A stretch of DNA of 58,799 nt, taken from Candidatus Zhuqueibacterota bacterium. GTDB taxonomy: Bacteria; Zhuqueibacterota; Zhuqueibacteria; Residuimicrobiales; Residuimicrobiaceae. The notes beneath the pieces were generated by a model. The model saw nothing but the letters and a program-made list of their open reading frames with translations. It searched no databases and was not told where the DNA came from. Positions 1 through 57,858 of the stretch are shown here, piece after piece. The translations under genes were made by a program, and so were the position numbers. Each line of letters opens with the position of its first letter. Positions within the stretch are counted from its first letter, which is position 1. The stretch spans positions 1 to 58,799 of the forward strand of contig JAFGSU010000516.1 in assembly GCA_016934435.1 (NCBI GenBank). The letters are read 5' to 3'.

Positions 1-468
1 GTTGCACATTTCAATGATTTATTTCATACTCTGGAGTTTTCATCAGCTCAGGCCATTTCATCAAAGTTGATGGAATACTATCTGCAACGGAAATTTGATA
101 AAGTCTTGGTCATCTATAATGAATTCAAATCTGCGATGCAACAAAAGATAGAGGTTGAACAGTTTTTACCGATAACCCCTGTCTCCCCTGCAGAAGGTCG
201 TTTCGCCGTGGGTTTTATTTATGAGCCCGGTCCGGAGCGAATTTTAAAAGAGTTATGCCCGCTTAATTTAAATATCCAGATGTGGCGTATTTTGCTGGAA
301 TCAAACGCTTCGGAACTGGGCGCTCGCATGACTGCCATGGAAACGGCGACCGATAATGCGCAGGATATGATCAACGAACTGGTATTATATTATAATAAGG
401 CCCGACAGGCCGCCATTACCAAGGAATTGAATGAAATAGTCGGTGGAGCAGAAGCCCTGAGAGGGTAA
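1..468 (+). CDS. atpG: F1 ATP synthase gamma subunit, C-terminal part (5' end lies outside the window)
   Basis: Frame 1 is open from nt 1 with no stop before 466-468. The C-terminal helix ...ELGARMTAMETATDNAQDMINELVLYYNKARQAAITKELNEIVGGAEAL is typical of gamma. The gene is followed by atpD and atpC. Confidence 0.9.
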   Translation, partial: VAHFNDLFHTLEFSSAQAISSKLMEYYLQRKFDKVLVIYNEFKSAMQQKIEVEQFLPITPVSPAEGRFAVGFIYEPGPERILKELCPLNLNIQMWRILLESNASELGARMTAMETATDNAQDMINELVLYYNKARQAAITKELNEIVGGAEALRG

Positions 469-8300: not shown

Positions 8301-9983
8301 GGAACGACGAGGGTATATGAAGCAACCTACTATGTGGGCCGTACCTATCAGGAATTTGCACAAACCTGGGAATCCCAGCAAATTCCATCCATGGAACCAA
8401 ATCGCAAAATCATTGCGCAAAAAGACGTATATGATGCGTCGGTTTTATTGTACAATAGATCGGCTAAAGCCTTCTATCAGGGCGTCGTTGTGTTGACCCG
8501 GTTGGCTGAAGCGTATCGGCGCACCTTACAGGCGGGCTCTGACAGCCTGACTGCTCGGCCTACACTTACCGGCACAGTTGCCTCTGATAGTCTTTCGCGC
8601 CTTGCCGACAAATGGATCGGACAGTGCAAAGAGGGGCTCGCGGAAGTAAAGTACTGCGCGGCAAATGTTTTTTACAAGTCAGCCATCATGGTGATGGATG
8701 CTCCGGTTCCTCATAACATGGAAGCATTACAAGCGCTAACTTATCGGAAACGGATTCTGGAGGTCGGAGGCCAACCATTATTAAAAGAAAGTATGGTACA
8801 CCACCTCAACAACATGCAAGTGGCGGACTCATTGCGGATATTATCCGAGTGGATTACATTATCACAGCAGAAAGCATTCAGGATTCCACAAATTCTGCAA
8901 CGGTACTATTCTTCACTGGCAATGGACGCCTTACAACTGCTTGAGCAAAAAATGGTGCGCTATGCAGGACTTTTATACAGTCGGAGACGTTCGGAAGACC
9001 AGCTAAACCAGCTGTCAGAATACTCCGATTTGCTGACTAGTGCAGTGAATTTTGCTAGAAATTCCATGATTCGCGCCGTAGATTGCTTGTTCGAGGATTT
9101 GCTGGATGGCCTTGAAAATCAAGCTCGGAATTCAATGCTTTCGACTAACCAGGATTCGTTGATTCTGGCTGTCGTTACTTTTGCGGAGAAAAGCGACTCT
9201 CTTGTTGAAAGCACAAAGGCACGTGCCCATGAGATGCGAGGGAAATTTATACGTACACAGAATCCCGTTTATGAACAGGCGCTTTTCACGTTCGAAAAAA
9301 TCCATTTGGCTCTGTCTGAAGCCGAGAAAGAAATTGTACAGCAGGCATATACGCGCATCAAAGAATTTCAGGTAAATAACGTTTTATGGCAAATGATGCT
9401 TTTACATCTGGCAAAATTTGAACCGGATCGCTATGTAAAAGTCGCCGCACTTGAAATAAAACAACAGGTAATTTCAACCGATACAACCTGGAGATCCCAT
9501 TCCGTTTATGTCGAGAATTGGACCGGGCCTGAAGTCGATGACCACCTTTGGTCTCCGGCTGCAATTATTTCAGAGGGCAATGCGAGCATACCGGCCATAT
9601 GGATTCATAGCGGCAGGGGTGGTATTCCGCAAGTAGATTCGGCTGCCGATACGCAGACAAGCTCAGGGCTGGTTTATTTTCGCAGGACGTTTCACGTGAA
9701 CGGCTGGACGGTTGCATGTCGCATTAAGTTCCGAAAATTGGTGGAAATGAATGTGTATATGAATGGAGCTCTGGTAAAGAAATATTCGGTGAGCGACGTC
9801 GGCAAAGAGGATGAAATTGATATATCAGGATGGATCGATGATGGCGCCAACGTATTAGCCCTGGAGGCAGGGAGAAATACTGCGAATGAGGGAGGCATTG
9901 CCGCATCGATAACCTGTCGCTGGATTGCGGATTGGCATGGCAAAATGGCCCGTTTGCGTCAGGCCCTGAGCCGCAAAGATTAG
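5379..9983 (+). CDS. Giant TPR-repeat envelope protein with a C-terminal galactose-binding-like jelly-roll domain
   Basis: 1534 aa. Its start overlaps the previous stop (ATGA at 5379-5382). There is an N-terminal TM segment (FWCFLFLFIFCLILM) and many TPR units, for example DEALYRLGWCYYRRNQYANAISYF. The C-terminal ~180 aa (...YFRRTFHVNGW...NVYMNGALV...GANVLALEAG) resemble a GH2-N/galactose-binding fold. Confidence 0.8.
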   Translation: MIKLTQKIASKKKAISTPSMKIRYRKPILLRMVFNCFESWSGFWCFLFLFIFCLILMEGNSQTRLSVTEVRAEQDSALKGYTLEELEQYNRLYSREITRLQRENVELRRQGIREAELFLTSNPASKDADKIILQLAELYYDQSQDYFQIAMQEFDSLSAQYQGGKLSAPPSEPKKDFRRPIELYYHLIQHYPASALADDATYNLALLLEETGQADSAFVFYETILEEYPNTPLKPDVLMRIGEYYFNPPNNMIDQAIHYFEQLLQYRDSPRYDEALYRLGWCYYRRNQYANAISYFTLLVDDITRTKPYDPFQRYSNPSLVEEAIEYIGLCFLDYGGVEKAAQYIDDIGGRPYGVNVLKRLGDAYMDEKEDYARALKTYQVLLRMYPFDAMAPAVQNRVVQTYRRMEDQSMAFFARDLLFQQYREGSEWWQKNNDKEARRRALIFVESALRDNITVLINRAQDSGQKEFYRQAVAESHKYLDYFPNDSLSAMIHWNLSLILDTKLNKEMEAYEEYIKISQSYLNTKYQQHAAENAVVLAREAADRTASQSPSTAPSVHIEDLRIQFGTVTEKILKFREKMRIQPIPLSREQERLAKAYDNYFTLFPHGSETPIFLANAGTLYYRHFQFREALKYYNTLLKHFPDSEEAHQVRFAVMESYFGKADFRSCEIVARRILYSDASDEIKTKARRRMSEAIFLGAELLADGSKHLEAGNEYRRMARENPGGPFVDLALFNAALEYEKAHEFNRAIEAYNYLLAYYPQSSFVHDAQNNLAFDYAELYDYRNAALTYERVAAAHPDPVQARDALYNAGLYFSQLGDYQNAIRIHKNFSKKYSHDDLADDLAFEIAHLYQALDEDEQAQQAYQQFVEDYPHLPRAVEAYYVRSTYFLKKGDAQKASDELQKAIACSKELERMGQDRNDYFAAEAEFSLAMIHFAEFVQIQFQLPGKTLQANKVRKKELLQQIVHHLGNCAAYGTTRVYEATYYVGRTYQEFAQTWESQQIPSMEPNRKIIAQKDVYDASVLLYNRSAKAFYQGVVVLTRLAEAYRRTLQAGSDSLTARPTLTGTVASDSLSRLADKWIGQCKEGLAEVKYCAANVFYKSAIMVMDAPVPHNMEALQALTYRKRILEVGGQPLLKESMVHHLNNMQVADSLRILSEWITLSQQKAFRIPQILQRYYSSLAMDALQLLEQKMVRYAGLLYSRRRSEDQLNQLSEYSDLLTSAVNFARNSMIRAVDCLFEDLLDGLENQARNSMLSTNQDSLILAVVTFAEKSDSLVESTKARAHEMRGKFIRTQNPVYEQALFTFEKIHLALSEAEKEIVQQAYTRIKEFQVNNVLWQMMLLHLAKFEPDRYVKVAALEIKQQVISTDTTWRSHSVYVENWTGPEVDDHLWSPAAIISEGNASIPAIWIHSGRGGIPQVDSAADTQTSSGLVYFRRTFHVNGWTVACRIKFRKLVEMNVYMNGALVKKYSVSDVGKEDEIDISGWIDDGANVLALEAGRNTANEGGIAASITCRWIADWHGKMARLRQALSRKD

Positions 9984-9987
9984 GATT

Positions 9988-10016
9988 TTGATACAGATCC
10001 GCAGTAGCTTTATACA
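9988..10016 (+). promoter_or_regulatory. Candidate sigma70-type promoter (TTGATA-17-TATACA)
   Basis: TTGATA at 9988-9993, a 17-nt spacer, then TATACA at 10011-10016. The predicted start at about 10022-10025 coincides with the first bases of repeat copy A. Confidence 0.4.
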
Positions 10017-10020
10017 TAGC

Positions 10021-10102
10021 AGATTCGGTGTTAACTGGCAAATTGAAGGGATGAGGCGCCACCCACAGGAGTACCGAAATAATTTGTAGACACCGAATCG
10101 GT
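10021..10102 (+). repeat. Conserved intergenic element, full copy A (candidate 5'-leader RNA or operator)
   Basis: Aligns without gaps over 82 nt to 20904-20985 and 25096-25177. The 5' GATTCGGTG is complementary to the 3' CACCGAATC. The copy ends in the perfect palindrome ACCGAATCGGT (10092-10102), 25 nt before the ATG at 10127. Confidence 0.8.
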
Positions 10103-10126
10103 ATCCATTTGAACCAGGGAGCAAAA

Positions 10127-10477
10127 ATGATTTTTATTTCGAGTAGAGTGTCAGCGTTGTGGGGGATCGTCCTGTTGAGCTTTTTATCCGCTAACGGCTT
10201 AACACAGGATGTTATAAAAATGCATCCTCAATCTCGAACGGACAGTACGCTGACGAAAGAAATTCTATTGGAGGATATTTATATAGAAGCGGTCATCGAG
10301 AAACCGAGTGTCACACTGATCCCCAAACGCGTCGAACCCGATATTGGCACCATACCTTTTAAGTATCGTTCATTTGATGAGGAGCTAAAGGCCAAACCGG
10401 AGATGCTGGAAGAATATGGAAGGGAATTTGAAGAAGGAAGAAGAGCACAAAAAATTAAAAAAAATGTTGCTAAATAA
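10127..10477 (+). CDS. Small secreted protein with a Lys/Glu-rich C-terminus (unknown function), first gene of the Exb-like operon
   Basis: The ORF track starts at a TTG at 10109. The ATG at 10127 is preceded by GGGAG (10116-10120) and gives a signal peptide, MIFISSRVSALWGIVLLSFLSA. Confidence 0.6.
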   Translation: MIFISSRVSALWGIVLLSFLSANGLTQDVIKMHPQSRTDSTLTKEILLEDIYIEAVIEKPSVTLIPKRVEPDIGTIPFKYRSFDEELKAKPEMLEEYGREFEEGRRAQKIKKNVAK

Positions 10478-10546: not shown

Positions 10547-11197
10547 ATGGCTGAAGTGTTCAGAAGTTTTAATCCGGATGTTACCGGCTGGCAATTTATG
10601 TGGCTTTTGGTTATTCCCGCGGTTTTTGCGGTGGCCATTTCTATTGAACGTATGATCTATATCATGATTAAAAGCGACATAAATGCCGCCAAATTCATGT
10701 CGCAAATCCGCAAGTATGTGGTTGCACATGAATTTGGTAAAGCCATTGAGCTCTGCCGCATGGCGAAGGAACGTGCTTTGCCCAAAGTGGTTGCATGCGG
10801 ATTGCGCGCAGCAGCGGAAAACGATCCGGTTGATTTTCGTACGGTTCAAAATGCTGTGGATGAAGGGATGCTGGAAGTGATTCCAAGGTTACAAGAGCGA
10901 ACCAACTATCTGGCCATGATTGCCAATATTGCCACTCTGCTCGGCCTTTTAGGGACGATCTATGGGCTCATCATTGCTTTTCGTTCCATTTCCGCACCCG
11001 GCATCGACGCCACGGAGAAGGCAAGGTTGCTTTCGGCTGGAATCTCCACTGCCATGAATACGACCCTTGTAGGACTTTCCATTGCCATTCCTACGATCTT
11101 TTTTTATACGTTTCTGGTGAATAAAACAAACAAGATCATAGATGAGATAGACGAACATATGGTCAAGTTGATCAACCTGCTGACCGGGAATCGTTAA
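10547..11197 (+). CDS. MotA/TolQ/ExbB-family proton channel
   Basis: 216 aa with three TM segments. The conserved C-terminal region is LGLLGTIYGLIIAF...ISTAMNTTLVGLSIAIP. Confidence 0.9.
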   Translation: MAEVFRSFNPDVTGWQFMWLLVIPAVFAVAISIERMIYIMIKSDINAAKFMSQIRKYVVAHEFGKAIELCRMAKERALPKVVACGLRAAAENDPVDFRTVQNAVDEGMLEVIPRLQERTNYLAMIANIATLLGLLGTIYGLIIAFRSISAPGIDATEKARLLSAGISTAMNTTLVGLSIAIPTIFFYTFLVNKTNKIIDEIDEHMVKLINLLTGNR

Positions 11198-15282: not shown

Positions 15283-15391
15283 AAGCCGCCAGTCTATTCA
15301 GGTGCCGGACCTTTACCGGCATGCTAAAAATTAATAGGTTGGGGATGATGTAAGAGATGTGCCTGTTATCTGAATGTATCGCTCAATCGGA

Positions 15392-15442
15392 CAACACCGA
15401 TTCGCCGCCCACAGGTTACAACGTTTACCTTATGGGTGGCAC
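15392..15442 (-). repeat. Diverged 3'-half copy (E) of the intergenic element, inverted orientation, containing a hairpin
   Basis: The reverse complement reads GTGCCACCCATAAGG...CCTGTGGGCGG-CGAATCGGTG. It has the same 38-nt spacing between the GYGCCACCCA block and CGAATCGGT as copy A. GCCGCCCACAGG (15404-15415) pairs with CCTTATGGGTGGC (15428-15440). Confidence 0.55.
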
Positions 15443-15526
15443 ATTATCCGTTCAGTTCAGGTTGAGGCAAAATTTAGGGACAAATTAACCAAGCTTTAAA
15501 ATGTTAAAAAATATTAATCTTTCCAC

Positions 15527-15555
15527 TTGACAATTAGTCATTTTTTTATTAAAAT
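15527..15555 (+). promoter_or_regulatory. Near-consensus sigma70-type promoter (TTGACA-17-TAAAAT)
   Basis: TTGACA at 15527-15532, a 17-nt spacer, then TAAAAT at 15550-15555. It lies about 130 nt upstream of the lipoprotein gene start. Confidence 0.6.
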
Positions 15556-15685
15556 GATCTTAGTATGGAGTAGTAAATAACTACAAAAATGCTAAAGCAT
15601 GTGCAATAATAAGTTTTTTAATAATTTATAAAGGCACTGTTTGAAACTCAGTAAACGCATTCGTGCGAAAGGAGGTGTAGAGTTG

Positions 15686-15952
15686 ATGAAGAGATCGATT
15701 TTTCTAGTATTTGCCGTCTGTTTGCTACTTTTGGCCTTTATGATTGTTGGTTGCAGTCGCCATCCCAATGAACAGGAACTGAAGGCATTAGAGGAACAGA
15801 AGCAAGCCGCTGTAGCAGCGGAAACGAAAGCTACAGATTGTGGAAACGAGAAAGCTGCCCTGGAAAACCAATTAGCGGAAACGACCAGGAAGGCGGAAGA
15901 AATGAAGCAGGAAAAGGTGGCCGTTGAAAAACGCCTTGCTGAGTGGGAGTAA
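15686..15952 (+). CDS. Coiled-coil lipoprotein
   Basis: The ATG at 15686 follows AAAGGAGGTG by 8 nt. The signal peptide plus lipobox is MKRSIFLVFAVCLLLLAFMIVGC. The mature part is Glu/Lys/Ala-rich and heptad-like. Confidence 0.75.
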   Translation: MKRSIFLVFAVCLLLLAFMIVGCSRHPNEQELKALEEQKQAAVAAETKATDCGNEKAALENQLAETTRKAEEMKQEKVAVEKRLAEWE

Positions 15953-20382: not shown

Positions 20383-20838
20383 GTGATTCAGATGGTCCGT
20401 AATATCCAGATTCATGTCCAATGCCCGAATTCCCGTCTGCCGGTGGGAGATATGGAACTTTTAGCAGACCTGATTTTAAAAAAATACCATAGCAGAAAAG
20501 GATGGCAGGTCTCCATTATCCTCGTCAATGATGAGCAAATGATCAGGCTCAATAGAACTTATTTTAATAAAATAATGCCCACCGATGTGATCTCTTTTAA
20601 TATGGATGATAATGACCATCCGTCGTTCCTGCAAGGTGAAATTTATATAGATATAGATCAGGCTTCTTTACAAGCACGACGATATGGGGCGTCTTTGCAA
20701 AATGAAATCTTACGCCTGACCGCGCATGGCATCTTTCATCTGTTGGGATATACCGACGAAACTGAAGAAAGCAGTTTGATGATGACAAAACTTGAAGATG
20801 AAATCTTAACCGAATTTGAGCAGTTTGGTCGGAATTAA
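20383..20838 (+). CDS. ybeY: rRNA maturation endoribonuclease YbeY
   Basis: 151 aa. The metal motif HGIFHLLGYTDE aligns with HGxLHLxGYDH. The position after phoH/HD is the usual synteny. The start is uncertain: GTG at 20383 or ATG at 20392. Confidence 0.88.
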   Translation: MIQMVRNIQIHVQCPNSRLPVGDMELLADLILKKYHSRKGWQVSIILVNDEQMIRLNRTYFNKIMPTDVISFNMDDNDHPSFLQGEIYIDIDQASLQARRYGASLQNEILRLTAHGIFHLLGYTDETEESSLMMTKLEDEILTEFEQFGRN

Positions 20839-20845
20839 AAATCCC

Positions 20846-20874
20846 TTGACAATAAGGTAAATTTTTGATAATAT
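20846..20874 (+). promoter_or_regulatory. Near-consensus sigma70-type promoter (TTGACA-17-TAATAT)
   Basis: TTGACA at 20846-20851, a 17-nt spacer, then TAATAT at 20869-20874. The predicted start at about 20881 lies roughly 20 nt upstream of repeat copy B. Confidence 0.6.
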
Positions 20875-20903
20875 TAAAAGAACGTCGCATATTATATTTT
20901 CCC

Positions 20904-20985
20904 AGATTCGGTATTAACTGGTAAATAGAATTGATACAGCGCCACCCACAGGGTTGCCGAAATAACTTGCAGACACCGAATCGGT
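20904..20985 (+). repeat. Conserved intergenic element, full copy B (candidate 5'-leader RNA or operator)
   Basis: AGATTCGGTATTAACTGGTAAAT...GCGCCACCCACAGGG...GCCGAAATAACTTGCAGACACCGAATCGGT. The palindrome at 20975-20985 ends 27 nt before the ATG at 21012. Confidence 0.8.
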
Positions 20986-21011
20986 GATTTTAATTCTGAT
21001 GGAGGCTGACC

Positions 21012-22160
21012 ATGCATGTGCTCCGATTTGATTACCGGGATTTATTTCGCGCTCCCAGATTGGCATTCAGCATGCAACGTATCTGGATACAGTTTTTTGG
21101 CATGAGTATTGGATATGGCGTCTATTTGGTATTAACCTATATTGCTTTCCTGATCAATGGAACTTCTATCACGCAGACGTGGGAGGCGTTCGGTCTTGCA
21201 CCCTGTTTGTTTGCCGCCTGGGGTTCAATTGCCTGGTACGCCTGGTTGGCGTTCGCTTTTGCTATCTTTGCATTATTTTTTGTTTTTTTAATCACCAATA
21301 CTGCCGTTGCCAGAGTGACATACATGGTTTCGAAGGGCAACCACTTTTACAGTTCGCGAGAAGCATTATCGTTTTCGTTGCGAAAAATGGCAGCCGTTCT
21401 CTCGACGCCTTCTTCGCTATTGCTATTGCTGGTGTGCATGGTTGTCGGCAGTATGATATTGGGTCTGATCGGGCGTATTGCCTATTTCGGAGAATTGGTT
21501 GTCGGAATATTTTCAATACTATGGTTCCTGTCGGCTTTACTATTTATTTATATTTTCCTGGTCTTTCTCGCTTCGTTTCTTCTAACACCAAGCATCATCG
21601 CTTGTACGGATGAGGACGCTTTTGAGGCTGTTTTTCAGACTTTTTCCATTACATGGGGGCAACCCTGGCGCCTGATTCTCTATGAGATCATTACTATCAT
21701 ACTTGCTCTATTTTCGATGGGCGTTCTTGCCTTTCTGGGTAAGCGAGCGATTATGTTGACAAATGTACTGCTCTGCCGTTTTATGGGTATGGATTATATC
21801 ATCTTGTCTAATAATGGACAGGCGCTCGTGCAAAACTGGATCATTGCAATCGAAGCCCCCTTACGGGCCATATATCACAACTTTACAGGGCAAATATTTT
21901 TCACCAATGAATTTATCTATACGCCGACAAATAATGTGGCATTAACCATCGCCTCGTTTTTGTTTGCCCTCAGTCTGCTGTGTTTCGGCGCTTGGATTCT
22001 CGCTTACGGTCTATCGACATTTACAGTTGGTAATACCTTGACTTATCTTATTTTGCGGCATAAAAAAGATGGGGAAAATCTGCTGGAGCGAAAAGATAAA
22101 GAAGAAGAAAGCGAAGAGTCTGAGACGAATGAGGTGAGCAGCGAACAGGCGCCCGGATAA
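21012..22160 (+). CDS. Polytopic inner-membrane protein with an acidic C-terminal tail (unknown function)
   Basis: 382 aa. GGAGG lies 6 nt upstream of the ATG. There are about 8 hydrophobic segments, and the C-terminus is KDKEEESEESETNEVSSEQ. Confidence 0.7.
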   Translation: MHVLRFDYRDLFRAPRLAFSMQRIWIQFFGMSIGYGVYLVLTYIAFLINGTSITQTWEAFGLAPCLFAAWGSIAWYAWLAFAFAIFALFFVFLITNTAVARVTYMVSKGNHFYSSREALSFSLRKMAAVLSTPSSLLLLLVCMVVGSMILGLIGRIAYFGELVVGIFSILWFLSALLFIYIFLVFLASFLLTPSIIACTDEDAFEAVFQTFSITWGQPWRLILYEIITIILALFSMGVLAFLGKRAIMLTNVLLCRFMGMDYIILSNNGQALVQNWIIAIEAPLRAIYHNFTGQIFFTNEFIYTPTNNVALTIASFLFALSLLCFGAWILAYGLSTFTVGNTLTYLILRHKKDGENLLERKDKEEESEESETNEVSSEQAPG

Positions 22161-22300: not shown

Positions 22301-23584
22301 ATGTCTGTATTTGTAAAAATTAAAGATAAGCAGTTAGGGCCCTATTCCTACCAGGAGCTCAAGCAGCTGGTGGGACAGGGTGCTTTCAGCAAAGAAGACC
22401 TGATATTCCATGAGGAACGGCAGGAATGGGTAAAAGCGGCCCAGATAGAGGAAATTCGTCAATTATTTCCGGACCAGCACTATTCGGCAACCGGGCGAAC
22501 AGTTTTCGCTGTCGGTGGAGGAAAGGGTGGGGTTGGCAAAACCGTTCTCACCGCTTCAATAGGTATTGGCCTGGCGACATTGGGTTACAAGGTGGTCATT
22601 GTTGACGCCGATTTGGGCGGCGCGAATTTGCACACCTGCATGGGTATTTTGGAGCCGGAGTATACTTTTTACGATTTTTACTCATTACAAAAGGACAACC
22701 TGGTAGACATATTACTTGATACGCCCATAGAAAATTTAAAACTTATCAGTGGGGCTTGCGGCACGCTGGGGTTGGCTAATCCTCGCTACTCACAAAAATT
22801 AAAATTTATCAATCAACTGAGACGGATCAACGCCGATTTTATCTTGCTTGACCTGGGGGCTGGATCATCATTCAACGTCATCGATTTTTTCCTCGCTGCC
22901 GACCAGGGGATCGCCGTTACCTCGCCCGAACCCATGGCCATCCAGGAGACTTTTAACTTTATTAAAATATCGTTGATGCGACGACTCTTGCGAGAGTTTA
23001 AAGATAATCCACAGGTGATTTCAAAATTAGAACAAAACGCCTTCTCAGAATCAGGCCGCATGGCTGCAACCCTGGAATCGGTTATAGAGCAGATACGTAT
23101 CATAGATACCAAGGCTGCTGAGAGTATGCAGCATACCATCGACCGATTCAAACCCTCCCTTATTCTGAATATGGTTCATTCCCAGGAGGAAATTAAAGAG
23201 GGTATGGCACTACGCACAGCAGTCGAGGATCTTTTGTCTTTAAAAATGGATTATATGGGTTATGTTGATTATGATGATTCCGTTCGCAAGGCGGTAAAAG
23301 AACTTCGGCCTTTTGTGATCGATAATCCAAAATCAAAAGCATCGAGGAGTCTGGCAAAATTAATCACCATCGGACTTTTAGGAAAAACAGGCTGGAGCGG
23401 TTTTAAAGAAAAACGGAGAGTACTAAAACACATAACCCAGGATGCAAAAACTTATCCGGCAAATAGCCTTAAAGAAAGCGATACCATTTGCTCGGTGCAA
23501 TGTTTTTACTGGGGCGATTGTGAATACCAAAATGGCGGCTATCCCTGTCCCGTTCGTCATCTGGACCCCATTTTTCGACGTTAA
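22301..23584 (+). CDS. GYF_2-domain / MinD-ParA-FlhG-type P-loop ATPase with a C-terminal Cys motif
   Basis: The N-terminal ~55 aa (GPYSYQELKQLVGQGAFSKEDLIFHEERQEWVKA) are GYF_2-like. The deviant Walker A is GGGKGGVGKT, followed by VIVDADLGG. The C-terminus is CSVQCFYWGDCEYQNGGYPCP. Confidence 0.8.
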   Translation: MSVFVKIKDKQLGPYSYQELKQLVGQGAFSKEDLIFHEERQEWVKAAQIEEIRQLFPDQHYSATGRTVFAVGGGKGGVGKTVLTASIGIGLATLGYKVVIVDADLGGANLHTCMGILEPEYTFYDFYSLQKDNLVDILLDTPIENLKLISGACGTLGLANPRYSQKLKFINQLRRINADFILLDLGAGSSFNVIDFFLAADQGIAVTSPEPMAIQETFNFIKISLMRRLLREFKDNPQVISKLEQNAFSESGRMAATLESVIEQIRIIDTKAAESMQHTIDRFKPSLILNMVHSQEEIKEGMALRTAVEDLLSLKMDYMGYVDYDDSVRKAVKELRPFVIDNPKSKASRSLAKLITIGLLGKTGWSGFKEKRRVLKHITQDAKTYPANSLKESDTICSVQCFYWGDCEYQNGGYPCPVRHLDPIFRR

Positions 23585-25039: not shown

Positions 25040-25095
25040 TATTTATTTTCACGATCTTGTAAGATATTATCCATGAGGTTCGATTGATAAATCTT

Positions 25096-25177
25096 AAATT
25101 CGGTATTAACCGGTAAACAAAAGCGATGAGCCGATACATTCGGGATAGATGAATAATCTGGTAAACACCGAATCGGT
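25096..25177 (+). repeat. Conserved intergenic element, full copy C (variant core), between trkH and trkA
   Basis: AAATTCGGTATTAACCGGTAAAC...CCGATACATTCGG...GAATAATCTGGTAAACACCGAATCGGT. The palindrome at 25167-25177 ends 32 nt before the ATG at 25210. Confidence 0.8.
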
Positions 25178-25209
25178 ATAAATTTTGACTTGAAGAAGAG
25201 AGCGAAAAT

Positions 25210-35955: not shown

Positions 35956-38900
35956 ATGGAACATAACTCGATCATATTCAGGCTGCGGTTCGCACCCATC
36001 ATACTCCTGGCCGGTTGGTTGCTGCTCGGCGTGAAAGAGGTGGCTTGGTCGCAAGATGCGGAAAGTTCCGTTGAAAAGCCGGATTTTTATCAGGTAACCA
36101 CTCATCCGGATATTGATTTGTCGCCTCGGATTTCGCCGGATGGCAAATGGATGGCTTATGTTGTACGGCAAACATATAATTTTGATATATGGGTTCGCGG
36201 AACCCGAGGGGGGCGGACGCGGCAGATTACTTATACACAAGCCGACGATTTTTATCCGGTATGGTCTCCGGACAGCAAATCATTGTTCTACGTCAGCCAG
36301 ACAAAAGATGCAGCTGGCGATATTTGGCGCATCCGCTTGAAGGAAGTCAAGCGCAGCATGTTCCCCAAAGGCGAACCGGAGCGTATCACCGATTACCAGG
36401 GATTTGATGGATATCCAGCCGTTTCCGGTGATGGCAAAAAGATCGCATTCGTTTCGGATCGCAGCGGTCGCGATGAAATCTGGCTTTATGATGAAGACAC
36501 CCGTCTGACCGGTCAACTCACTTTTTTGGGCGGCACCCACCCCGCCTGGGGCGTTAACAAGAATTTACTCGCCTTTACTTCGTTTCGATCCGATCCGCAC
36601 TGCAATGGTGACATCTGGCTGATGGATCTGACTGAAAATAATCCCGCGAGTGCTTTGGAAAGTAAAAATCAAGAATCGCCTGAGCCGGCTGTCTGGCCAT
36701 TAACATATGGTCCTGCAGCGGATGGATTTCCATCCTGGTCGCCCGATGCAAACCGGATTGTCTTTTTACGCTTTGAGTTTGATACCAACGGGGACGGTGT
36801 TTTATCTCCGGCTGATTGCGGAGAACTCTGGCACATCAAAGTTGGAGTACCCCCGGAAGAATCAATGCAATCCGAGTTGCTCCAATCTCCATTCAGGGAT
36901 TTACTGCAAAGATCTTTTAATCCGATGATGGTGAGGGCAGCTACTCCGTTGACGAGCAGCGGTACAAATATTATGCAACCATGGTATGGCGGTGACCGGA
37001 GGGTATATTTTACTTCAGACCGGGGAGGGAATCTAGATATCTGGTCTATCCCTGAAAGTGGTCCCATCCCCAGACAGGAAAATGTGCAAAGCCAGCTCGA
37101 TTATGTCGATCAGATGTATCCCCTGAATGCACGGGCATCCCTGCAAAGTTTGGGGCCATTATACCTTGGCTTCCGTGAGCTCTCTTTCTCGTCCAAAGAA
37201 CGCCGCACGCTTTGGGATCGTATATTGGCCTTGAAATATGTTATTGAGTATTTTCCCGAAGAACCGGCCATAACGGCGCAAACTGTTTATGAATTGGGCG
37301 TCAATTATGCCTTTTTAGGTTTTGAAAGGCAGGCAAGAGATTATTGGCAGACCTTATTGCAACGTTTTGCCGATGAACGAAGAATTGCCTTCTATTCTGA
37401 ATTGGCTTTGCTGGGATTGAAGGTTGATACAACTCCAGATGTTCGTATGGCTGAGGACTTTAGAAGGGAAATCAACAGTTTAATAGAAAAATATAAGGAT
37501 CAGGTTGAACCGGCTTCGGTTGCTCAAATTGCTGTCGGTGATCTTTTTTACCTCTCGGGCGATCATATGCGCGCGTTCCAGGAATATGCCAAGGTTCAGA
37601 AAAATTATGCAAAACAACGAGATGCCTGTGCCGCAAGTCAATTAAAGATAGGCGATGTCTTTAAAGAATTTGCATCCCAGCAGGAGGTCATAAACGCCTA
37701 TCTCGAAGTGCTTAAGAATTATCCGGATCAGAGGCAATGGATGGTGCCGGCTCGCGAAAGGATACTCCAAATCCTCACCGAAGGTACTCATAGCGATCAG
37801 GAGCTTATCTCGCGCTACCGGGAAATAGCTGGTCAATATACAGATTTTGGAATCCTGGCTGTGGAGGCACAGTATAGAATAGGACAATTACTCTATAAGA
37901 TTGGGGATTATAGAGAGGCGGGGCAAGAATACGAAGTCATCGAAACGCTGTTTCCGTCTCTTCCTGTGGAAGTCTTCAATGCACAGATGGGGAGAACGGA
38001 GGCGTTGATACAGTCCGGCGAAAGTATGAAAGCCTTTGATTTGTTGCAGTCGCTTGTTATAAAACATAAAGACTCGAATAAGGCTTTTGCAAATCAGGCT
38101 GAAAATAAATTGGTACAAGCCTATCTGTATTCGGCTGATCAATTGCGAGGGGGTGGGGATTTACAATTAGCCAGCGTTCGCTACCGAGCAGCGTGGATGA
38201 TTGATCTGCGCAACATCCACGCTCATAGAGGATATCTGGAATGCAAGTATTACATGCGGGCTATTGATGATGCCATTATCGAATACAGACAGTTAAACAC
38301 ACTTAATCCCGGCAATAACATTTTGCAATACGCTTTAGGATTGGCTTATTCTTATAAAGGCACGGAAAAAGCGGAATTGGATGGTGATCCGGATGGCCTC
38401 GATCCCTATTATCTGGTTTCGAGATCGGGTGGTACCATCGCCCGCGCCCTTTCCCTCGATTATACCCTGGTTCCGGCTTATTTAACCATAAGCTATAATG
38501 CTGAGATGATGGAAAATTATGAGGCGAGACAAAGAAGCAAGCCGAAACCTTTTTTAACCAAGGTGTGGCGTACCCTCACCGCTCCTATTATCAGTTTATA
38601 TCACAGCTTGACGTTTTATGAAGAAACCAAGCCGGTGCGATATTATGAAAGGGCAATACACGAGCTAAACAAGGCTATCGTGCTAAACGATGAGACTGTT
38701 GATCCCAAACTGGAAGCGAGTCTGGCGCTTAATTTAGCCAATAACTACTACAACCTCGGCGAGTTTGGCTATGAGAAAGCGTATGAATTTTATCAAGTCA
38801 AACTGAAATACGATTCTGCCTTTGTTGACAAACAGCGGCAGGCCTTAATTTACGAACGCATGGGGCACTGTGCGCTGGTTACGGAAGATTTACAAAAAGG

Positions 38901-41900
38901 TCCGGAATTTCTCTTACATGCCATTGAAATGTATCAAAAAATGGATAACGAGCCCAGACTTTTGCTCAATATTAAAAGACTGGCACTGCTTTATGAGATC
39001 GGCCGTCAATACGACATGGCTATCGAATATTATCAGCGAGCCATTGACATGGAGGCCAGGTATAATGATTACGATAACTTGCTGAGGAGTTATCGCAGCA
39101 TTGCCTACAATTTTCTTAACCTGAAAGAACCAGCCGATGCAATTGAATATGCGCGCAAGGCCTATAATCTTTTACAAAGTGGCAAGGTGAAAACCGTAAA
39201 AAGTGAAGCCAGCCGTATTAAAGTGGGGTTTTTAGGTCTGTATGTACCGATCCCTTTTATCGATCTCAGCAATATGGCCGGTGGATCAACACGCAGTTTT
39301 TCTACTGAGGATGAACTGGCGCTCATCTATTCCATCTTTGGCGAAAGTTACGTTCTGACCAAAGACTATGATAGCGCTATTCCATTTTTTTTGAAAAAGA
39401 TAGAAATTTTTCACAAGAGAAAAGACGATCGTGCCGAGGCCATTTTTTATAACAACCTGGGTTATATATATTTTCTTCGCGGTGATTATAAAGAAGCCTG
39501 GAATTATTTTCGCAGCTCCTTGCGGTTGTGTGAAAAGAATAAAATTTTCCAGGGAATCATTGAAAACAATCTTAATCTGGGAAGGATCGTCAGCAGCTGG
39601 CATCTTCAGAAGAAACAGGGGCAAATACTACCCCTGAATCAGACGGAATTCCAGGCCTATATCGATGACGCAGCGGAGAGAATTAATATAGCGTTTAAAA
39701 CACTCGAAGAATCCGAAGCGTTTTATAGTCGTGAGAGGTGTCAGCTTTTGTTACAGCTGGCGGAACTTACAATACTATATTCACAGGAAGGGAAAAGCGA
39801 AGGTGTTTTGGCGTCCATTGAAGCATCGCTTCTGCAAATTGAAAAAGCTACCCTTGCAAGCGTTTATCTGAAAGAAGTGCTGGAAATCAGTCAGCGCTAT
39901 CGATTGTCTGATATGGAAGCAATGGCGCACTATGCTCTGGGCGAACTTAATCGCTCCATCGCAGATTTCGATAACGGTTTAACTTACCTGCAAGATGCTC
40001 GTCGCATTGCATTACGGAATGGATTGTTTGAAATTCTCTGGCGTATCGATCTTGGTTTGGGCGACCTGCATGTTGCAATGAATCGTGAGACAAAGCATCG
40101 CCTGATCATCCAACAGGATGCCAGTGAATTCTATTTTGAAGCCATTGATATTCTTGAGACACATCCTGAATTAAGCAAAGACGATGTGGTGCCGGAAATG
40201 CGACAGGCGAAAAAATTGCCCTATCTGCGTGCCATTCAATATTTGGCGGCAAAAGGAGATACGCTTGGTTCATTAATTTTTGCCGAGAGAATGCGGGCGA
40301 AAGCCTATCTGGATTTGGTCAATTCAGAGGAAATCGTTTTACGAAAAGAGCGGCACAAGATTTATTTCGGCAATGCCCGTTTTGTGCAAAAGAAACTGGA
40401 TGAGATAAATAGCAATTTGTTGCGCGCCAAAAACCAGGCGGACATACCGCCGTATCAGGTGCGAGAGTGGCAGCGACAACGCCGTGATTACCTCGAAGAA
40501 TATGAAAATATTATCGAAAATGTGCGAGCCGAAATCCCGGAATTAGAAAATATGGTACGCGTCAATCCGGTCGGGCTCGCTCAGGTACAACAACAAATCA
40601 ATTTTGACGAAGCACTTGTCTTTTTCCAGTCATGTGACAGTACCATGTTATCCTGGACTATAACCCGGGAAGCGATCAAACTGTCGGTTCTTCCCATAAC
40701 GTCTCGGAAGTTGCACGATAGCATGGCGACCATGATACGAACCTTGCCGCAAGCTGACAGTTTGTACAGCAAAGGTCACATCTTCGAACAATTGATGAGA
40801 CCCATAAAAGAACTTGCTGAAGAATTCAACCGCATCGTCTTGATTCCTGAAGGGCAAATGGTTTATTTCCCCTGGAACGCCTTGATTCTCTCTCAACTAA
40901 AGAATAATACTTTTTCCCAGGTTTCGGCAAGTACAAGTCTCACCGCCTACTATTACGCCAGCCAGAAGCGGAAAATTCAAGGCGATCGAATCTTCATCGC
41001 CGACAACCGCAATTTGGCTCAGGAACTCGGCAACCAGCGATATCGAGTTGTTCAGCCCACACCGACCGCGCAACAAAAAGTATCCGAGATTCAGTTCGGA
41101 GCTATGTCATTAAGCGATATCATCCACTTGCGGATTGAAAGCGAGTGGAACACGATAGATCCTTTACAATCAAAAATTGGATTCCGCATACCACGCTCCG
41201 CACCAGCTGTCTTTAATGTTAAGCAGCTTTATCAGAATAATTTTGCCGCCGGATTAATGGTATTGCAACCTAATACATCCCTTATTTCAATCAAAAGCGA
41301 CGAACCCTTTTTGGCCTGGGAGCGTGGGCTTATCTATTCGGGTGTTCCAGCCATGATGCTGTCATTGTGGTCCGGCTCGGCTGAGAAAGAGGAAGCATTC
41401 TATCGTGATTTTTATGCGAATTTGATGGAAATGCCGCCCGGGAAAGCCCTGACGGCAACCCAGATGAGTCGGCTTTCTCGCAATGAAGATATTTCGGAAT
41501 GGGGTCGATTTCAGTTGTTTGGATTTGGCGGCATGACATCGGAAGAGGAGCAACTGTATGCTGCCGAAGGATTTTCCGGCAAGGTGCGTCGCGGTCATAG
41601 CGCATTCGATTTAGGGGAGTGGTCGGATGCCATTCGATTCTATGAAGAGGCGCTGCAAATGGCCGAGCGTCAGCGAGAGCAGGAGAGCATCGCGTTATTG
41701 AATCAACGTATACTGGAAAGTGCCGTGAATGGCGCGCTATGGGAGAAGGCGATTGATTTACAGAATCGTCTGCTCGAAGAAGCGGAAAATGCCCGCGACA
41801 TCAGTGGAATAGCAAATAGTTACAATAATCTGGCTTTTTTCCATACTCAGAATGGTCAATTTAATCAGGGAGTGGCATTTAAAGCCAAATATAGCGAATT

Positions 41901-44439
41901 GGCTAATAGATACGGTTTGCATCAGGAGGAGGCAAAATCCCTGCGAGAAATGGGTCTTATCTATGAGCGCGGCAATCAACCGGAGAAGGCACTGGAATTA
42001 TTTCAACAAGCCAAAGAAAAATTCGAACAGATTGATGACCGAACGGGCACGGCACAGAGTCTGCGCGATATGGGGCGAATCTATTTCATATATTTCGATA
42101 ACTATACGGCTGCTCTAAAGGTGCAAGAACAGGCGCTATCGATTTTCCGGCGAGGGCCCATACAAATGGATCTGGTCGACGCCTGGCAAAATCTCGGCCT
42201 TATTCATGAAAAAATGGGTAATTATCAATTGGCGCTATCCTGTCAGGAGACCGCTTATGATCTGGCCCTGCAATTGCAGGACTTAAAATACATCGGACTG
42301 GCTCATCAATATCAGGCCAATGTTTTATGGAAAATGGGTAATTATCAAGCGGCCCTGCAGAACCAAAATCACGCCCTGGAAATATTTACCGAATTGGGCG
42401 ACGAAAAATTGTTGCAGGTGGCACTCGCCACCCGGGGTCTCATCGCCTTGAGTTTTAATCAATTTGAGCAAGCGCTGGCGTTTGAAGAACAGGCCCTGCA
42501 ATATGCCCTGCAAAGAGACGATCAACACGATCAGGCTATGATCCACAAAAACATCGGGCTGGTCCATCGAGCGCAAAAAAAGAATGATCTGGCATTGGTA
42601 AGTTTTGAGCAGGCGGCGATGATCGATTCAACAATCGGTTCAAAGCGCGGATTAGCCTACGATTATCGCAATCTGGCCGCTCTCTACGGAGAAGAAAATC
42701 GCACCGCCCTGGCCATACAAACTGCTTCGCGGGCCTTATCCATGAGTGTGGAAATAAATGATGTGCGCAACCAGGCGCAGAGCTTATTGGCGCTGGCTCA
42801 TTTGATGCAAGAGACGGCACATGTGGATACCATCGCCGTGATACTGCAAAAAGTCGTGCAATTATCCGAAAGCCATTTTATGCCGGAAATCACCTGGCGG
42901 GCTCAGAAAAAGCTGGCCGAAATCGAGCGCGATCGCAACCATATTCCGGCCGCCATCGAACAGTTTTATCGAGCCCTGGACACCATTGAAAGCATGCGGG
43001 CGCGTATTCAGGTAGAAGAATACGCCGCCGGATTCATTGATGACAAATTGGATGTTTATGGTGAATTGATTGACCTGCTTGTAAAAGAGAACAAGGCTGA
43101 GGAGGCATTGATCGCTTGCGAGAGAGCTCGAAGCCGCAGTTTTCTCGATATGCTCGGTCAACGACGCATCGATTTTTCTTCAACCCGGGAAACAACCCTG
43201 ATGTCGGTTCGGGATAGTCTGCAGGTATTGCTGAATCAAGCTCAAACGGAATTGATTTTTCTACGCTCCCTTCAGGATATCTCACAAACCCGACGTATCA
43301 AGGAACTCGAGTCACAGGTAGAGTCGCTTCGAGCGGAATTCTCCCGACACCTCCTCACGATGCGAGAATACAATCCGGAATTCTCCGATCTGGTGCAACC
43401 GCAACCATTACAGATAGATACGATTAAAGCCTTGCTCCCGGATAGCACCGGGCTGATCGAATATTTTCTACTCCATGACAAACTGATCATCTGGCTGGTC
43501 ACCTCTCATTCTGTTCAGGCGGTGACAACCGCCCTCACAGAATCACAGCTCGACCAGGATATATTCGACTTGCGTCACAGCCTCGAGCGCCAGCTGTCCT
43601 TCGACGAACTGGCCAAGCGAATCTATGGTTATCTGATCCAACCCCTGGAGGAGAAATTGGCGCGCCTGAATCATCTCATTCTCATTCCTCATAAAAAGTT
43701 GCATTATTTGCCGTTTGCCGTCTTGCATGCGGGCGATAAAAATTATTTTGCTTTTAATCATACCCTGTCGGTCTCACCCAGCGCAACCATCTTTGGATAC
43801 TGCTTGAAGAAAGGGAAAATATTTTTATCAAAGGATGAAAAACAAATGGATGTACTGGCATTTGGGAATCCCGATTTGGGTGATCCCAAGTTATTTCTGC
43901 CATTTGCTGAGCGAGAGGTTAAGAGTTTGCAACGTTTTTATCCCAATGTTGAATATTATCTTAACCAGCGCGCCAGCGAAACACAATTAATTGATTCCGC
44001 TGCCGATGCGTCATTACTCCTGTTTAGCTGTCATGGTATGTTTGATGATGCCAACCCGTTATTGTCTGCCCTGCTTCTGTCTCCCGATGACGCCAATGAC
44101 GGGCGTCTGGAAGCTCATGAAATATTTTCATTGCAACTGGACGCTGCGCTTGTGGCGATGAGCGCTTGCGAAACCGGATTAGGCACTATCCGCAGCGGGG
44201 ATGAAGTAGTCGGACTCTCCCGCAGCTTTATCTATGCCGGAGCGGCCTCGTTGATGTCCAGCCTCTGGAAAGTCGATGATTTAGCGACCGCTGTGCTGGT
44301 TAAACGGTTTTTTCGCTATCTGGCAGAAGGATATTCCCGCGCACAAGCATTACAAAAAGCCCAGAAGCTGGTTTATGAGGCCGTTAATCCCTACCCGGCC
44401 TACTGGGCGGCCTTTACCATCACCGGCGATTTCAGGTAA
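35956..44439 (+). CDS. Giant secreted PD40 beta-propeller / TPR / degenerate-CHAT / TPR / CHAT (caspase-like) protein
   Basis: 2827 aa with a signal peptide. TolB-like PD40 repeats are present (SPDGKWMAYV, WSPDSKSLFYVS, SGDGKKIAFVSDRSG, WSPDANRIVF, YFTSDRGGNLDIWSI). There are dozens of TPR units. The C-terminal CHAT domain has FSCHG (His codon 44032-44034) and MSACETG (Cys codon 44167-44169). Confidence 0.9.
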   Translation: MEHNSIIFRLRFAPIILLAGWLLLGVKEVAWSQDAESSVEKPDFYQVTTHPDIDLSPRISPDGKWMAYVVRQTYNFDIWVRGTRGGRTRQITYTQADDFYPVWSPDSKSLFYVSQTKDAAGDIWRIRLKEVKRSMFPKGEPERITDYQGFDGYPAVSGDGKKIAFVSDRSGRDEIWLYDEDTRLTGQLTFLGGTHPAWGVNKNLLAFTSFRSDPHCNGDIWLMDLTENNPASALESKNQESPEPAVWPLTYGPAADGFPSWSPDANRIVFLRFEFDTNGDGVLSPADCGELWHIKVGVPPEESMQSELLQSPFRDLLQRSFNPMMVRAATPLTSSGTNIMQPWYGGDRRVYFTSDRGGNLDIWSIPESGPIPRQENVQSQLDYVDQMYPLNARASLQSLGPLYLGFRELSFSSKERRTLWDRILALKYVIEYFPEEPAITAQTVYELGVNYAFLGFERQARDYWQTLLQRFADERRIAFYSELALLGLKVDTTPDVRMAEDFRREINSLIEKYKDQVEPASVAQIAVGDLFYLSGDHMRAFQEYAKVQKNYAKQRDACAASQLKIGDVFKEFASQQEVINAYLEVLKNYPDQRQWMVPARERILQILTEGTHSDQELISRYREIAGQYTDFGILAVEAQYRIGQLLYKIGDYREAGQEYEVIETLFPSLPVEVFNAQMGRTEALIQSGESMKAFDLLQSLVIKHKDSNKAFANQAENKLVQAYLYSADQLRGGGDLQLASVRYRAAWMIDLRNIHAHRGYLECKYYMRAIDDAIIEYRQLNTLNPGNNILQYALGLAYSYKGTEKAELDGDPDGLDPYYLVSRSGGTIARALSLDYTLVPAYLTISYNAEMMENYEARQRSKPKPFLTKVWRTLTAPIISLYHSLTFYEETKPVRYYERAIHELNKAIVLNDETVDPKLEASLALNLANNYYNLGEFGYEKAYEFYQVKLKYDSAFVDKQRQALIYERMGHCALVTEDLQKGPEFLLHAIEMYQKMDNEPRLLLNIKRLALLYEIGRQYDMAIEYYQRAIDMEARYNDYDNLLRSYRSIAYNFLNLKEPADAIEYARKAYNLLQSGKVKTVKSEASRIKVGFLGLYVPIPFIDLSNMAGGSTRSFSTEDELALIYSIFGESYVLTKDYDSAIPFFLKKIEIFHKRKDDRAEAIFYNNLGYIYFLRGDYKEAWNYFRSSLRLCEKNKIFQGIIENNLNLGRIVSSWHLQKKQGQILPLNQTEFQAYIDDAAERINIAFKTLEESEAFYSRERCQLLLQLAELTILYSQEGKSEGVLASIEASLLQIEKATLASVYLKEVLEISQRYRLSDMEAMAHYALGELNRSIADFDNGLTYLQDARRIALRNGLFEILWRIDLGLGDLHVAMNRETKHRLIIQQDASEFYFEAIDILETHPELSKDDVVPEMRQAKKLPYLRAIQYLAAKGDTLGSLIFAERMRAKAYLDLVNSEEIVLRKERHKIYFGNARFVQKKLDEINSNLLRAKNQADIPPYQVREWQRQRRDYLEEYENIIENVRAEIPELENMVRVNPVGLAQVQQQINFDEALVFFQSCDSTMLSWTITREAIKLSVLPITSRKLHDSMATMIRTLPQADSLYSKGHIFEQLMRPIKELAEEFNRIVLIPEGQMVYFPWNALILSQLKNNTFSQVSASTSLTAYYYASQKRKIQGDRIFIADNRNLAQELGNQRYRVVQPTPTAQQKVSEIQFGAMSLSDIIHLRIESEWNTIDPLQSKIGFRIPRSAPAVFNVKQLYQNNFAAGLMVLQPNTSLISIKSDEPFLAWERGLIYSGVPAMMLSLWSGSAEKEEAFYRDFYANLMEMPPGKALTATQMSRLSRNEDISEWGRFQLFGFGGMTSEEEQLYAAEGFSGKVRRGHSAFDLGEWSDAIRFYEEALQMAERQREQESIALLNQRILESAVNGALWEKAIDLQNRLLEEAENARDISGIANSYNNLAFFHTQNGQFNQGVAFKAKYSELANRYGLHQEEAKSLREMGLIYERGNQPEKALELFQQAKEKFEQIDDRTGTAQSLRDMGRIYFIYFDNYTAALKVQEQALSIFRRGPIQMDLVDAWQNLGLIHEKMGNYQLALSCQETAYDLALQLQDLKYIGLAHQYQANVLWKMGNYQAALQNQNHALEIFTELGDEKLLQVALATRGLIALSFNQFEQALAFEEQALQYALQRDDQHDQAMIHKNIGLVHRAQKKNDLALVSFEQAAMIDSTIGSKRGLAYDYRNLAALYGEENRTALAIQTASRALSMSVEINDVRNQAQSLLALAHLMQETAHVDTIAVILQKVVQLSESHFMPEITWRAQKKLAEIERDRNHIPAAIEQFYRALDTIESMRARIQVEEYAAGFIDDKLDVYGELIDLLVKENKAEEALIACERARSRSFLDMLGQRRIDFSSTRETTLMSVRDSLQVLLNQAQTELIFLRSLQDISQTRRIKELESQVESLRAEFSRHLLTMREYNPEFSDLVQPQPLQIDTIKALLPDSTGLIEYFLLHDKLIIWLVTSHSVQAVTTALTESQLDQDIFDLRHSLERQLSFDELAKRIYGYLIQPLEEKLARLNHLILIPHKKLHYLPFAVLHAGDKNYFAFNHTLSVSPSATIFGYCLKKGKIFLSKDEKQMDVLAFGNPDLGDPKLFLPFAEREVKSLQRFYPNVEYYLNQRASETQLIDSAADASLLLFSCHGMFDDANPLLSALLLSPDDANDGRLEAHEIFSLQLDAALVAMSACETGLGTIRSGDEVVGLSRSFIYAGAASLMSSLWKVDDLATAVLVKRFFRYLAEGYSRAQALQKAQKLVYEAVNPYPAYWAAFTITGDFR

Positions 44440-57403: not shown

Positions 57404-57430
57404 ATTTTACTATGCTTGTTATGTTGTCAA
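57404..57430 (-). promoter_or_regulatory. Candidate sigma70-type promoter for the GEVED gene (minus strand TTGACA-15-TAAAAT)
   Basis: The minus strand reads TTGACA (57430-57425), a 15-nt spacer, then TAAAAT (57409-57404). The spacer is short. AGAGAGG lies before the ATG at 57353. Confidence 0.35.
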
Positions 57431-57476
57431 ATTTGATATTAACCCGCAAACTAAACTGAATAGGAACCGAATCGGT
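57429..57476 (+). repeat. Short variant (D) of the intergenic element, retaining the ACCGAATCGGT palindrome
   Basis: AAATTTGATATTAACCCGCAAAC...GGAACCGAATCGGT aligns to the two ends of copy C with the centre missing. The palindrome is at 57466-57476. Confidence 0.6.
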
Positions 57477-57858
57477 GAGAATTTTATGTTCAAGGGTAAA
57501 ATCGATTGTTGTCGATTGTTTCCTTTTAAAAGCAACTTGCTATTCTCTGGTTGTTACCTTTATGTCCTTTGTTTGAGTGGCAATGAGGCATGATTGCCAT
57601 AAAGCCCTCATATTTATTGTCAAGAATGTGATATAAAATCTATAAAAACAGTAATGAAAATTATGAGATATTATTATTTTTCTTTGACGCAGGGTAATTA
57701 TTCAAAAAACGTACCAGTAATAATCATTGGCGAGAAGGCCTCCTGTAGATGACCTCTTAAATTCTGGTGGATGGTCGTACAACTGTTGTTGCTTTTTTCA
57801 AGCTACTTTGGTAAATTACCTTTAATGTAATTAATGTAATAAAGGCGGATTGATTTCT

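Follow-up and report, generated by a model that had tools for sequence, protein, structure and literature searches.

A short intergenic repeat family in an uncultured KSB1 bacterium, most likely a new, lineage-specific MITE

Prokaryotic MITEs are shorter than 500 bp, do not code for a transposase, end in terminal inverted repeats (TIRs) of about 4 to 30 bp, and are flanked by direct repeats (PMC10969869). They are covered in the reviews PMC10969869, PMC2229807, and PMC3184786. The REP sequences form stem-loops that are described as G+C-rich (PMC3184786).

The stretch of DNA analyzed here, referred to as the window, comprises 58,799 nucleotides (58.8 kb) from a member of the KSB1 lineage and contains a dispersed 86-nt repeat. 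This repeat most likely represents a new, lineage-specific MITE family, that is, a kind of mobile DNA that is already known, and not a new regulatory RNA. The first-pass annotation had offered three readings: a leader RNA, an operator, and a REP/MITE-like repeat. Only the last of these is supported, as a MITE and not as a REP; the leader RNA and the operator are not.

Copies and detection of the repeat

Three copies of an approximately 82-nt unit had been described in the window, at 10021-10102, 20904-20985, and 25096-25177, along with a stray 11-mer. The gapless alignment of these copies, here named A, B, and C, is confirmed, with a mean column identity of 81%, flanks counted in. The 11-mer ACCGAATCGGT has four exact occurrences (10092, 20975, 25167, and 57466), as claimed, and the extragenic location is also borne out, every copy being outside long ORFs. 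An HMM built from A, B, and C finds two further members in the window, copies E and D, which brings the family to five members in the 58.8-kb window by both nhmmer and the covariance model (Table 1). The unit is 86 nt long, bounded by 5-bp direct repeats, and the uniform plus-strand orientation does not extend to the whole family, as copy E is on the minus strand. The 11-mer at 57466 does lie outside CDS but is not isolated: it forms the 3' terminus of the deleted copy D. The start codons 3' of A, B, and C are found at 10127, 21012, and 25210, at distances of 24, 26, and 32 nt.

With the filters off, the covariance model scores the five copies at 101, 99, 94, 81, and 30 bits, and the next match is at 13.8 bits with an E value of 0.56. 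Copies A and B are 81% identical, C is about 70% identical to either of them, and E is 60 to 64% identical to A, B, and C. The nhmmer E value listed for copy E is the one obtained after its own addition to the model. In the alignment, copy D retains the 5' block AAATTTGATATTAACCCGCAAAC and the 3' end ACCGAATCGGTG.

Table 1. Copies of the repeat, their target-site duplications (TSDs), and the 3' TIR of copy A in the window
Feature	Coordinates	Strand	Details
Copy A, full, 86 nt	10018..10103	+	Covariance model, 99.4 bits; nhmmer E = 4.8e-24
Copy A, left TSD TACAT	10013..10017	.	Partner TCCAT 10104-10108; 4/5
Copy A, right TSD TCCAT	10104..10108	.	Fixed-offset flank comparison
Copy A, 3' TIR ACACCGAATCGGTA, includes the 11-nt palindrome	10090..10103	+	Reverse complement vs 10018-10031: 11 of first 14-16
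Copy B, full, 86 nt	20901..20986	+	Covariance model, 101.3 bits
Copy B, left TSD ATTTT	20896..20900	.	Partner ATTTT 20987-20991; 5/5
Copy B, right TSD ATTTT	20987..20991	.	Fixed-offset flank comparison
Copy C, full, 86 nt	25093..25178	+	Covariance model, 93.9 bits
Copy C, left TSD TAAAT	25088..25092	.	Partner TAAAT 25179-25183; 5/5
Copy C, right TSD TAAAT	25179..25183	.	Fixed-offset flank comparison
Copy E, diverged, full length, 84 nt	15395..15478	-	nhmmer E = 1.7e-19; covariance model, 81.4 bits
Copy E, TSD TTGTC (minus-strand reading)	15479..15483	.	Partner 15390-15394; 5/5
Copy E, second TSD TTGTC (minus-strand reading)	15390..15394	.	Fixed-offset flank comparison
Copy D, internally deleted, 52 nt	57426..57477	+	Covariance model, 30.2 bits, E = 1e-4

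The repeat family is real and not a product of chance. With at most one mismatch, the 11-mer has 8 matches on both strands, compared with 1.04 +/- 0.99 in dinucleotide-preserving shuffles (n = 100), none of which reaches 8, and the 20-nt 5' block, with up to three mismatches, has 4 matches where 0.04 are expected. The E values of the matches range from 1e-19 to 1e-25. The copies are 19 to 40% divergent and are located in unique syntenic contexts. These observations make it vanishingly unlikely that chance similarity or an assembly artefact produced the repeat.

Copies A, B, and C contain stop codons in all three plus-strand frames and are too short to encode a transposase. On the minus strand, two of the three frames are open across the whole element (e.g., PIRCLQIISVLLWVAPHPFNLPVNTES); these open frames probably lack meaning. 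A search of 5.8 billion predicted proteins for spurious ORFs running through the copies, by alignment of concatenated frames, found nothing.

Beyond the window, the loose pattern ATTCGGT-N45-75-ACCGAATCGGT has at least 112 matches in the genome collection; the matches listed lack the internal motif and are due to chance. A stricter pattern has two matches in the JGI metagenomes, both unrelated and within CDS, and no true copy. Viral contigs, plasmids, and phages have no match to the element. It is also absent from 113,685 nt (113.7 kb) of DNA of KSB1 relatives, as judged by the covariance model.

Element ends and target-site duplications

For A, B, C, and E, the flanks on the two sides were compared at every pair of offsets, and for each repeat length the best offset proved to be identical in all four copies. 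At fixed offsets, 19 of the 20 positions of the flanking 5-mers are identical. The left repeat ends 3 nt 5' of the conserved A(G/A)ATT, and the right repeat begins 2 nt past ATCGG. For 6-mers, the match is 21/24, whereas the best offsets in 1000 flank shuffles give 13.4 +/- 1.0, with a maximum of 17; left and right flanks mispaired between copies match at 4 to 13 of 24 positions at the same offsets. The flanking repeats are copy specific and therefore belong to the targets, not to the element. Read from these repeats, the duplicated targets are AT-rich (16/20 bases). The flanks of copy D match at 2 of 5 positions, and a duplication is no longer recognizable there. Copy-specific 5-bp repeats of this kind are the signature of a staggered 5-bp cut.

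Boundaries defined by the TSDs (86 nt; 84 nt in E) make the two ends of the element symmetric, 5'-NNNAGATTCGGTRT ... ACACCGAATCGGTR-3', with imperfect TIRs. Of the first 16 nt, 11 in A, 11 in B, and 9 in C match the reverse-complemented last 16 nt, but only 6 do so in each of E and D; the core of the repeat is GATTCGGTGT / ACACCGAATC. The pairing that had been proposed as a closing helix is that of these two terminal inverted repeats. The 11-nt palindrome consists of the 3' repeat ACCGAAT and the terminal CGGT of the element.

The two ends differ in conservation. All five copies, the diverged E and the deleted D among them, end in an invariant 3' terminal 9-mer, CGAATCGGT (10094-10102, 20977-20985, 25169-25177, 15396-15404 on the minus strand, and 57468-57476). 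In contrast, the 5' terminal 5 nt are different in every copy (AGCAG, CCCAG, CTTAA, CCTAA, and GTCAA). This asymmetry may come from unequal needs of the transposase at the two ends or from a host function.

Insertion sites and gene neighborhood

The contig is assigned to candidate division KSB1 by homologues of its TrkA and ExbB proteins. Pfam scans and synteny with relatives give the gene order of the window. It begins with ATP synthase subunits, two TPR proteins, a small secreted protein, ExbB, two ExbD, and a TonB-like protein, followed by AspS, an 88-aa protein, a LysM protein, PhoH, a 7TM-HD protein, and YbeY and then by a 382-aa membrane protein, a GYF/ParA-like ATPase, TrkH, TrkA, Hsp20, Lon, and further genes. 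This order is kept in related KSB1 contigs, which lack the element at sites A, B, and C.

Copy A is found between the gene for a 1534-aa TPR protein, which ends at 9983, and the small secreted-protein gene (ATG at 10127), which heads an exbB-exbD-exbD-tonB-like cluster. This junction spans 143 nt in the window and 24 nt in contig L121, whose ExbB is 89% identical, and the genes overlap in contig L123; the element is absent from both. Such a junction in the relatives (24 nt or an overlap) implies that the gene 3' of copy A belongs to the upstream operon. The promoter scan does not report the TTGATA-17-TATACA promoter proposed earlier at copy A, the second hexamer of which overlaps the left 5-bp repeat.

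Copy B is inserted in the 5' UTR of the 382-aa membrane-protein gene, between the promoter TTGACA(20846)-17-TAATAT(20874) and a GGAGG RBS. Contig L112, with a TrkA that is 86% identical, has a near-identical TTGACA-17-TAATAT and the same GGAGG RBS and start codon without the element. Once 91 nt (86 nt plus one 5-bp repeat) are taken out, the window sequence aligns collinearly with that of L112 apart from one 1-nt gap. Copy C is located between trkH, which ends at 25039, and trkA (ATG at 25210). Contigs L113 and L114 have only 15 nt between trkH and trkA, and the spacers of L112 (151 nt) and L115 (111 nt) are both without the element. After excision, the spacers at A, B, and C would be about 52, 82, and 79 nt long; the closeness of these copies to start codons is largely due to the shortness of the original spacers.

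Copy E is situated between aspS, which ends at 15282, and a conserved plus-strand promoter, CCACTTGACAATT at 15523; it lies upstream of this promoter and is antisense to both neighboring genes. Copy D is found in a divergent spacer between a gene for a GEVED/T9SS protein (minus strand, starting at 57353) and citrate-lyase-like genes. Four of the five copies have the same plus-strand orientation as the genes downstream of them, which is not a significant bias.

A few other features of these loci deserve mention. Contig L112 stops within the region of site E, and its terminal positions 1-85 (minus strand) show a weak likeness to the 5' part and flank of copy E (TTAATT...AAATTTAGCTTTAA against TTAATT...AAATTTTGCCTCAA). 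This stretch may be a decayed orthologous insertion of E, in which case E would predate the species split. A promoter-like block, CCACTTGACAATT...TAAAAT, is shared by the window (15523-15560) and L112 (113-150) and precedes the 88-aa gene, whose start is near 15686.

Starting 8 nt past the ybeY stop codon, the TTGACA-17-TAATAT sequence at 20846-20874 is a near-consensus sigma-70-type promoter. L112 has an almost identical sequence and L115 a recognizable one, and thus the 382-aa membrane-protein gene has a conserved promoter of its own in this lineage, and KSB1 here uses classical -35 and -10 boxes. In more distant relatives, a CNNM/CBS/CorC gene (436 aa) is located between ybeY and the 382-aa gene (L113 4679-5989, L114 4680-5990, and L115 3876-5186); it is absent from the window (20838-21012) and from L112, so that genes have also been gained or lost at the junction carrying copy B. 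A cold-shock-domain gene (67 aa; L115 6732-6935 and L116 1624-1827) is found in one lineage of relatives between the gene for a 407-aa membrane protein and the GYF/ParA-like gene; the window is without it. At 22301-23584, the window encodes a ParA/MinD-like P-loop ATPase with an N-terminal GYF_2 domain, which adjoins the 382-aa membrane-protein gene; this pair is kept in all KSB1 loci that span the region (L112-L116). The gene at 35956-44439 codes for a protein of 2827 aa; in relatives, its orthologues have Tricorn-N, PD40, and TPR domains along with two CHAT (caspase-like) domains.

Nature of the element and comparison with known systems

The reading preferred in the first-pass annotation was a cis-regulatory leader RNA, a riboswitch or a protein-binding leader, in which alternative folds of the 3' arm control the downstream gene. 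The sense orientation of A, B, and C, which end 24 to 32 nt 5' of start codons, speaks for such a role, as does the position of copy B 3' of a strong conserved promoter, from which it is probably transcribed. The fold of copy A is somewhat better than those of its shuffles (z = -2.56). However, the folds of B (z = -1.03) and C (z = -1.61) are no better than shuffles, and the z-scores of all three vanish once the downstream leader is added. The RNAalifold consensus of four copies (-3.6 kcal/mol) consists of the terminal helix only, with a covariation term of -0.38 and one compensatory pair, which is supplied by copy E. Both arms of the terminal helix are altered in this copy (AUUUUGCC / GGCGAAU), with C-G changed to U.G and U-A to C-G and the pairing kept; at one both-sides change per helix, covariation stays within the shuffle control. 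The structure proposed earlier pairs 75.9% of the cells, compared with 73.8% in column shuffles, and its covariation score is matched by 60 of 500 shuffles, a comparison that has low power with four sequences. The inner helix, said to be compensated, is paired in 69% of the cells, and 6 of its 10 pairs depart via unpaired cells, which does not support that claim. Rfam, which the first-pass annotation had named as a check, has no match at the gathering score anywhere in the window, with only noise (E of about 1 to 3, at a cutoff of E <= 10) around copy A, indicating that this is not a known RNA family. Furthermore, relatives lack the element in front of their orthologues of the small-protein/exbB, 382-aa, and trkA genes. 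The genes 3' of A, B, and C (the ExbB/ExbD cluster, a membrane protein of unknown function, and TrkA) are unrelated to each other, copy E is antisense and has no downstream gene on its own strand, and flanking target duplications are unexpected for a leader that evolved in place. Mixed orientation and covariation not above that of shuffles had been named at the outset as grounds against a leader RNA, and this is largely what is observed. A leader RNA is therefore a very unlikely description of the repeat and is largely refuted as its origin. Three more specific candidates were also rejected: a c-di-AMP or other riboswitch class, prompted by trkA 3' of copy C, for which Rfam yields nothing; a sigma-54 or Bacteroidetes-type promoter inside the element, with unfit spacing and motifs; and an integron attC site, whose core GTTRRRY is not matched by GTTAACT (the last two by reading of the sequence only).

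Two other readings take the palindrome or the hairpin as the functional unit. A REP/REPIN-type hairpin repeat would be moved as single-stranded DNA by a RAYT (IS200/IS605-like Y1) transposase. Y1 single-strand transposition, as in IS200/IS605, results in insertion beside a fixed short target with no duplication. The element resembles such repeats in being short, noncoding, and intergenic, with ends that form a hairpin and are unequally conserved, and the arm changes of copy E that preserve pairing fit recognition of structure rather than of sequence. However, the variable, copy-specific 5-bp duplications of four copies indicate a staggered double-strand cut, and the window encodes no Y1 transposase. 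Among the folds computed for single-stranded DNA, those of A (z = -2.30) and C (z = -2.08) alone are better than shuffles, and modestly so; those of B (-0.85), E (0.07), and D (-0.27) are not. The stems are AT-rich and imperfect, in contrast to the G+C-rich stem-loops of REPs described in PMC3184786. Descent from this type of repeat thus appears highly improbable. The second reading is an operator, in which the palindrome ACCGAATCGGT and the upstream ATTCGGT half-site would bind a dimeric factor and the repeats would mark its regulon. The perfect 5-1-5 palindrome does have four exact noncoding copies in the 58.8 kb, and its part CGAATCGGT is invariant in 5/5 copies even though E is about 60% identical and D is truncated. 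Nevertheless, the palindrome is in every case accompanied by the remainder of the 86-nt unit and by the flanking duplications, and its position relative to promoters varies: at A and C it separates operon genes, at B it lies about 100 nt 3' of the -10 box, and at E it is antisense and precedes a promoter. The orthologous promoter of L112 is without it, and the only 11-mer in the 113.7 kb of DNA from relatives is inside the hsp20 CDS of L113 and L114. This match (10774-10784, reverse complement, ACCGATTCGGT; ...FTDSV...) is due to chance and is not an element copy; the two loci are near-identical and have it at the same position. Binding by the transposase would be a simpler account of a conserved transposon end, which leaves an operator with very little probability.

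A MITE family mobilized in trans by a putative transposase encoded elsewhere is the probable identity of the repeat. This assignment follows from the size of 84 to 86 nt (52 nt in the deleted copy) and lack of capacity for a transposase; the TIRs, with 9 to 11 matches of 16 in A, B, and C; the copy-specific 5-bp repeats at A, B, C, and E; the AT-rich intergenic targets; the five dispersed copies in 58.8 kb, some of them diverged or deleted; and the empty sites at A, B, and C. By comparison, the features of a structured RNA, namely, a match to a curated family, covariation (with low power from four sequences), and conservation upstream of orthologues, are not seen. A REP/REPIN is expected to have a RAYT association and no TSD, whereas here 5-bp duplications are present and the window is without a Y1 transposase. 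Neither the fixed position relative to promoters nor the conservation in orthologous promoters that an operator would have is observed. In the mechanism suggested by these data, a DDE-type transposase encoded elsewhere in the genome would bind the two ends of the element and cut an AT-rich target with a stagger of 5 bp; gap repair would then leave the 5-bp TSD. Pfam scans of the 58.8-kb window find no transposase or autonomous element with matching ends. A 5-bp duplication would fit several insertion-sequence families.

Given their location in a 5' UTR or between operon genes, A, B, and C are likely transcribed within the downstream mRNAs, where the hairpin could affect stability or translation as a side effect. 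The invariance of CGAATCGGT and the presence of three sense copies 24 to 32 nt before start codons also raise the possibility, unlikely as it is, that the host recruited this MITE as a portable protein-binding site or RNA hairpin that joins the exbBD cluster, the membrane-protein gene, and trkA. Should that be true, unrelated genes would be tied to one regulator or RNA-processing pathway, and a mobile element would have rewired a regulon within an uncultured phylum.

The main value of this analysis lies in a corrected annotation: the repeats should be masked as mobile DNA and not modeled as a candidate riboswitch. MITE catalogues are poor for uncultured phyla such as KSB1. Five copies per 59 kb, compared with none in 114 kb from relatives, point to a lineage-specific expansion, apparently in one lineage, and the family could act as a strain marker. 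The insertions in one 5' UTR and two operon junctions represent natural experiments on tolerance.

The element shares with the riboswitches and leader RNAs of Rfam the location of three sense copies just 5' of RBSs and a terminal helix that encloses it. It differs from them in having no Rfam match, conserved internal structure, or covariation, in not being conserved upstream of orthologues, and in preceding unrelated genes. REP, BIME, and REPIN sequences are likewise short, hairpin-forming intergenic repeats, often found within operons, whereas this element has copy-specific 5-bp TSDs, AT-rich imperfect stems, and no RAYT gene nearby. The prokaryotic MITEs compared here include Correia/NEMIS of Neisseria, ERIC/IRU of enterobacteria, RUP of Streptococcus pneumoniae, and QMITE of Coxiella. 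In common with them, the element is noncoding and shorter than 500 bp, with TIRs in the range of 4 to 30 bp, direct-repeat TSDs, and AT-rich intergenic targets, and is found in multiple diverged copies whose presence or absence differs among related genomes. The ends of these MITEs, too, can pair as a stem-loop in transcripts, with insertions in 5' UTRs and between operon genes. In contrast to these MITEs, the element has no similarity to plasmid, phage, or viral collections or to Rfam models, its parent insertion sequence is only putative, and its host belongs to an uncultured KSB1 lineage. Correia elements duplicate TA, whereas the TSD here is 5 bp. At 86 nt, the element is at the small end of the size range of prokaryotic MITEs, and it stands apart from them in a 3' end that is far better conserved than the 5' end.
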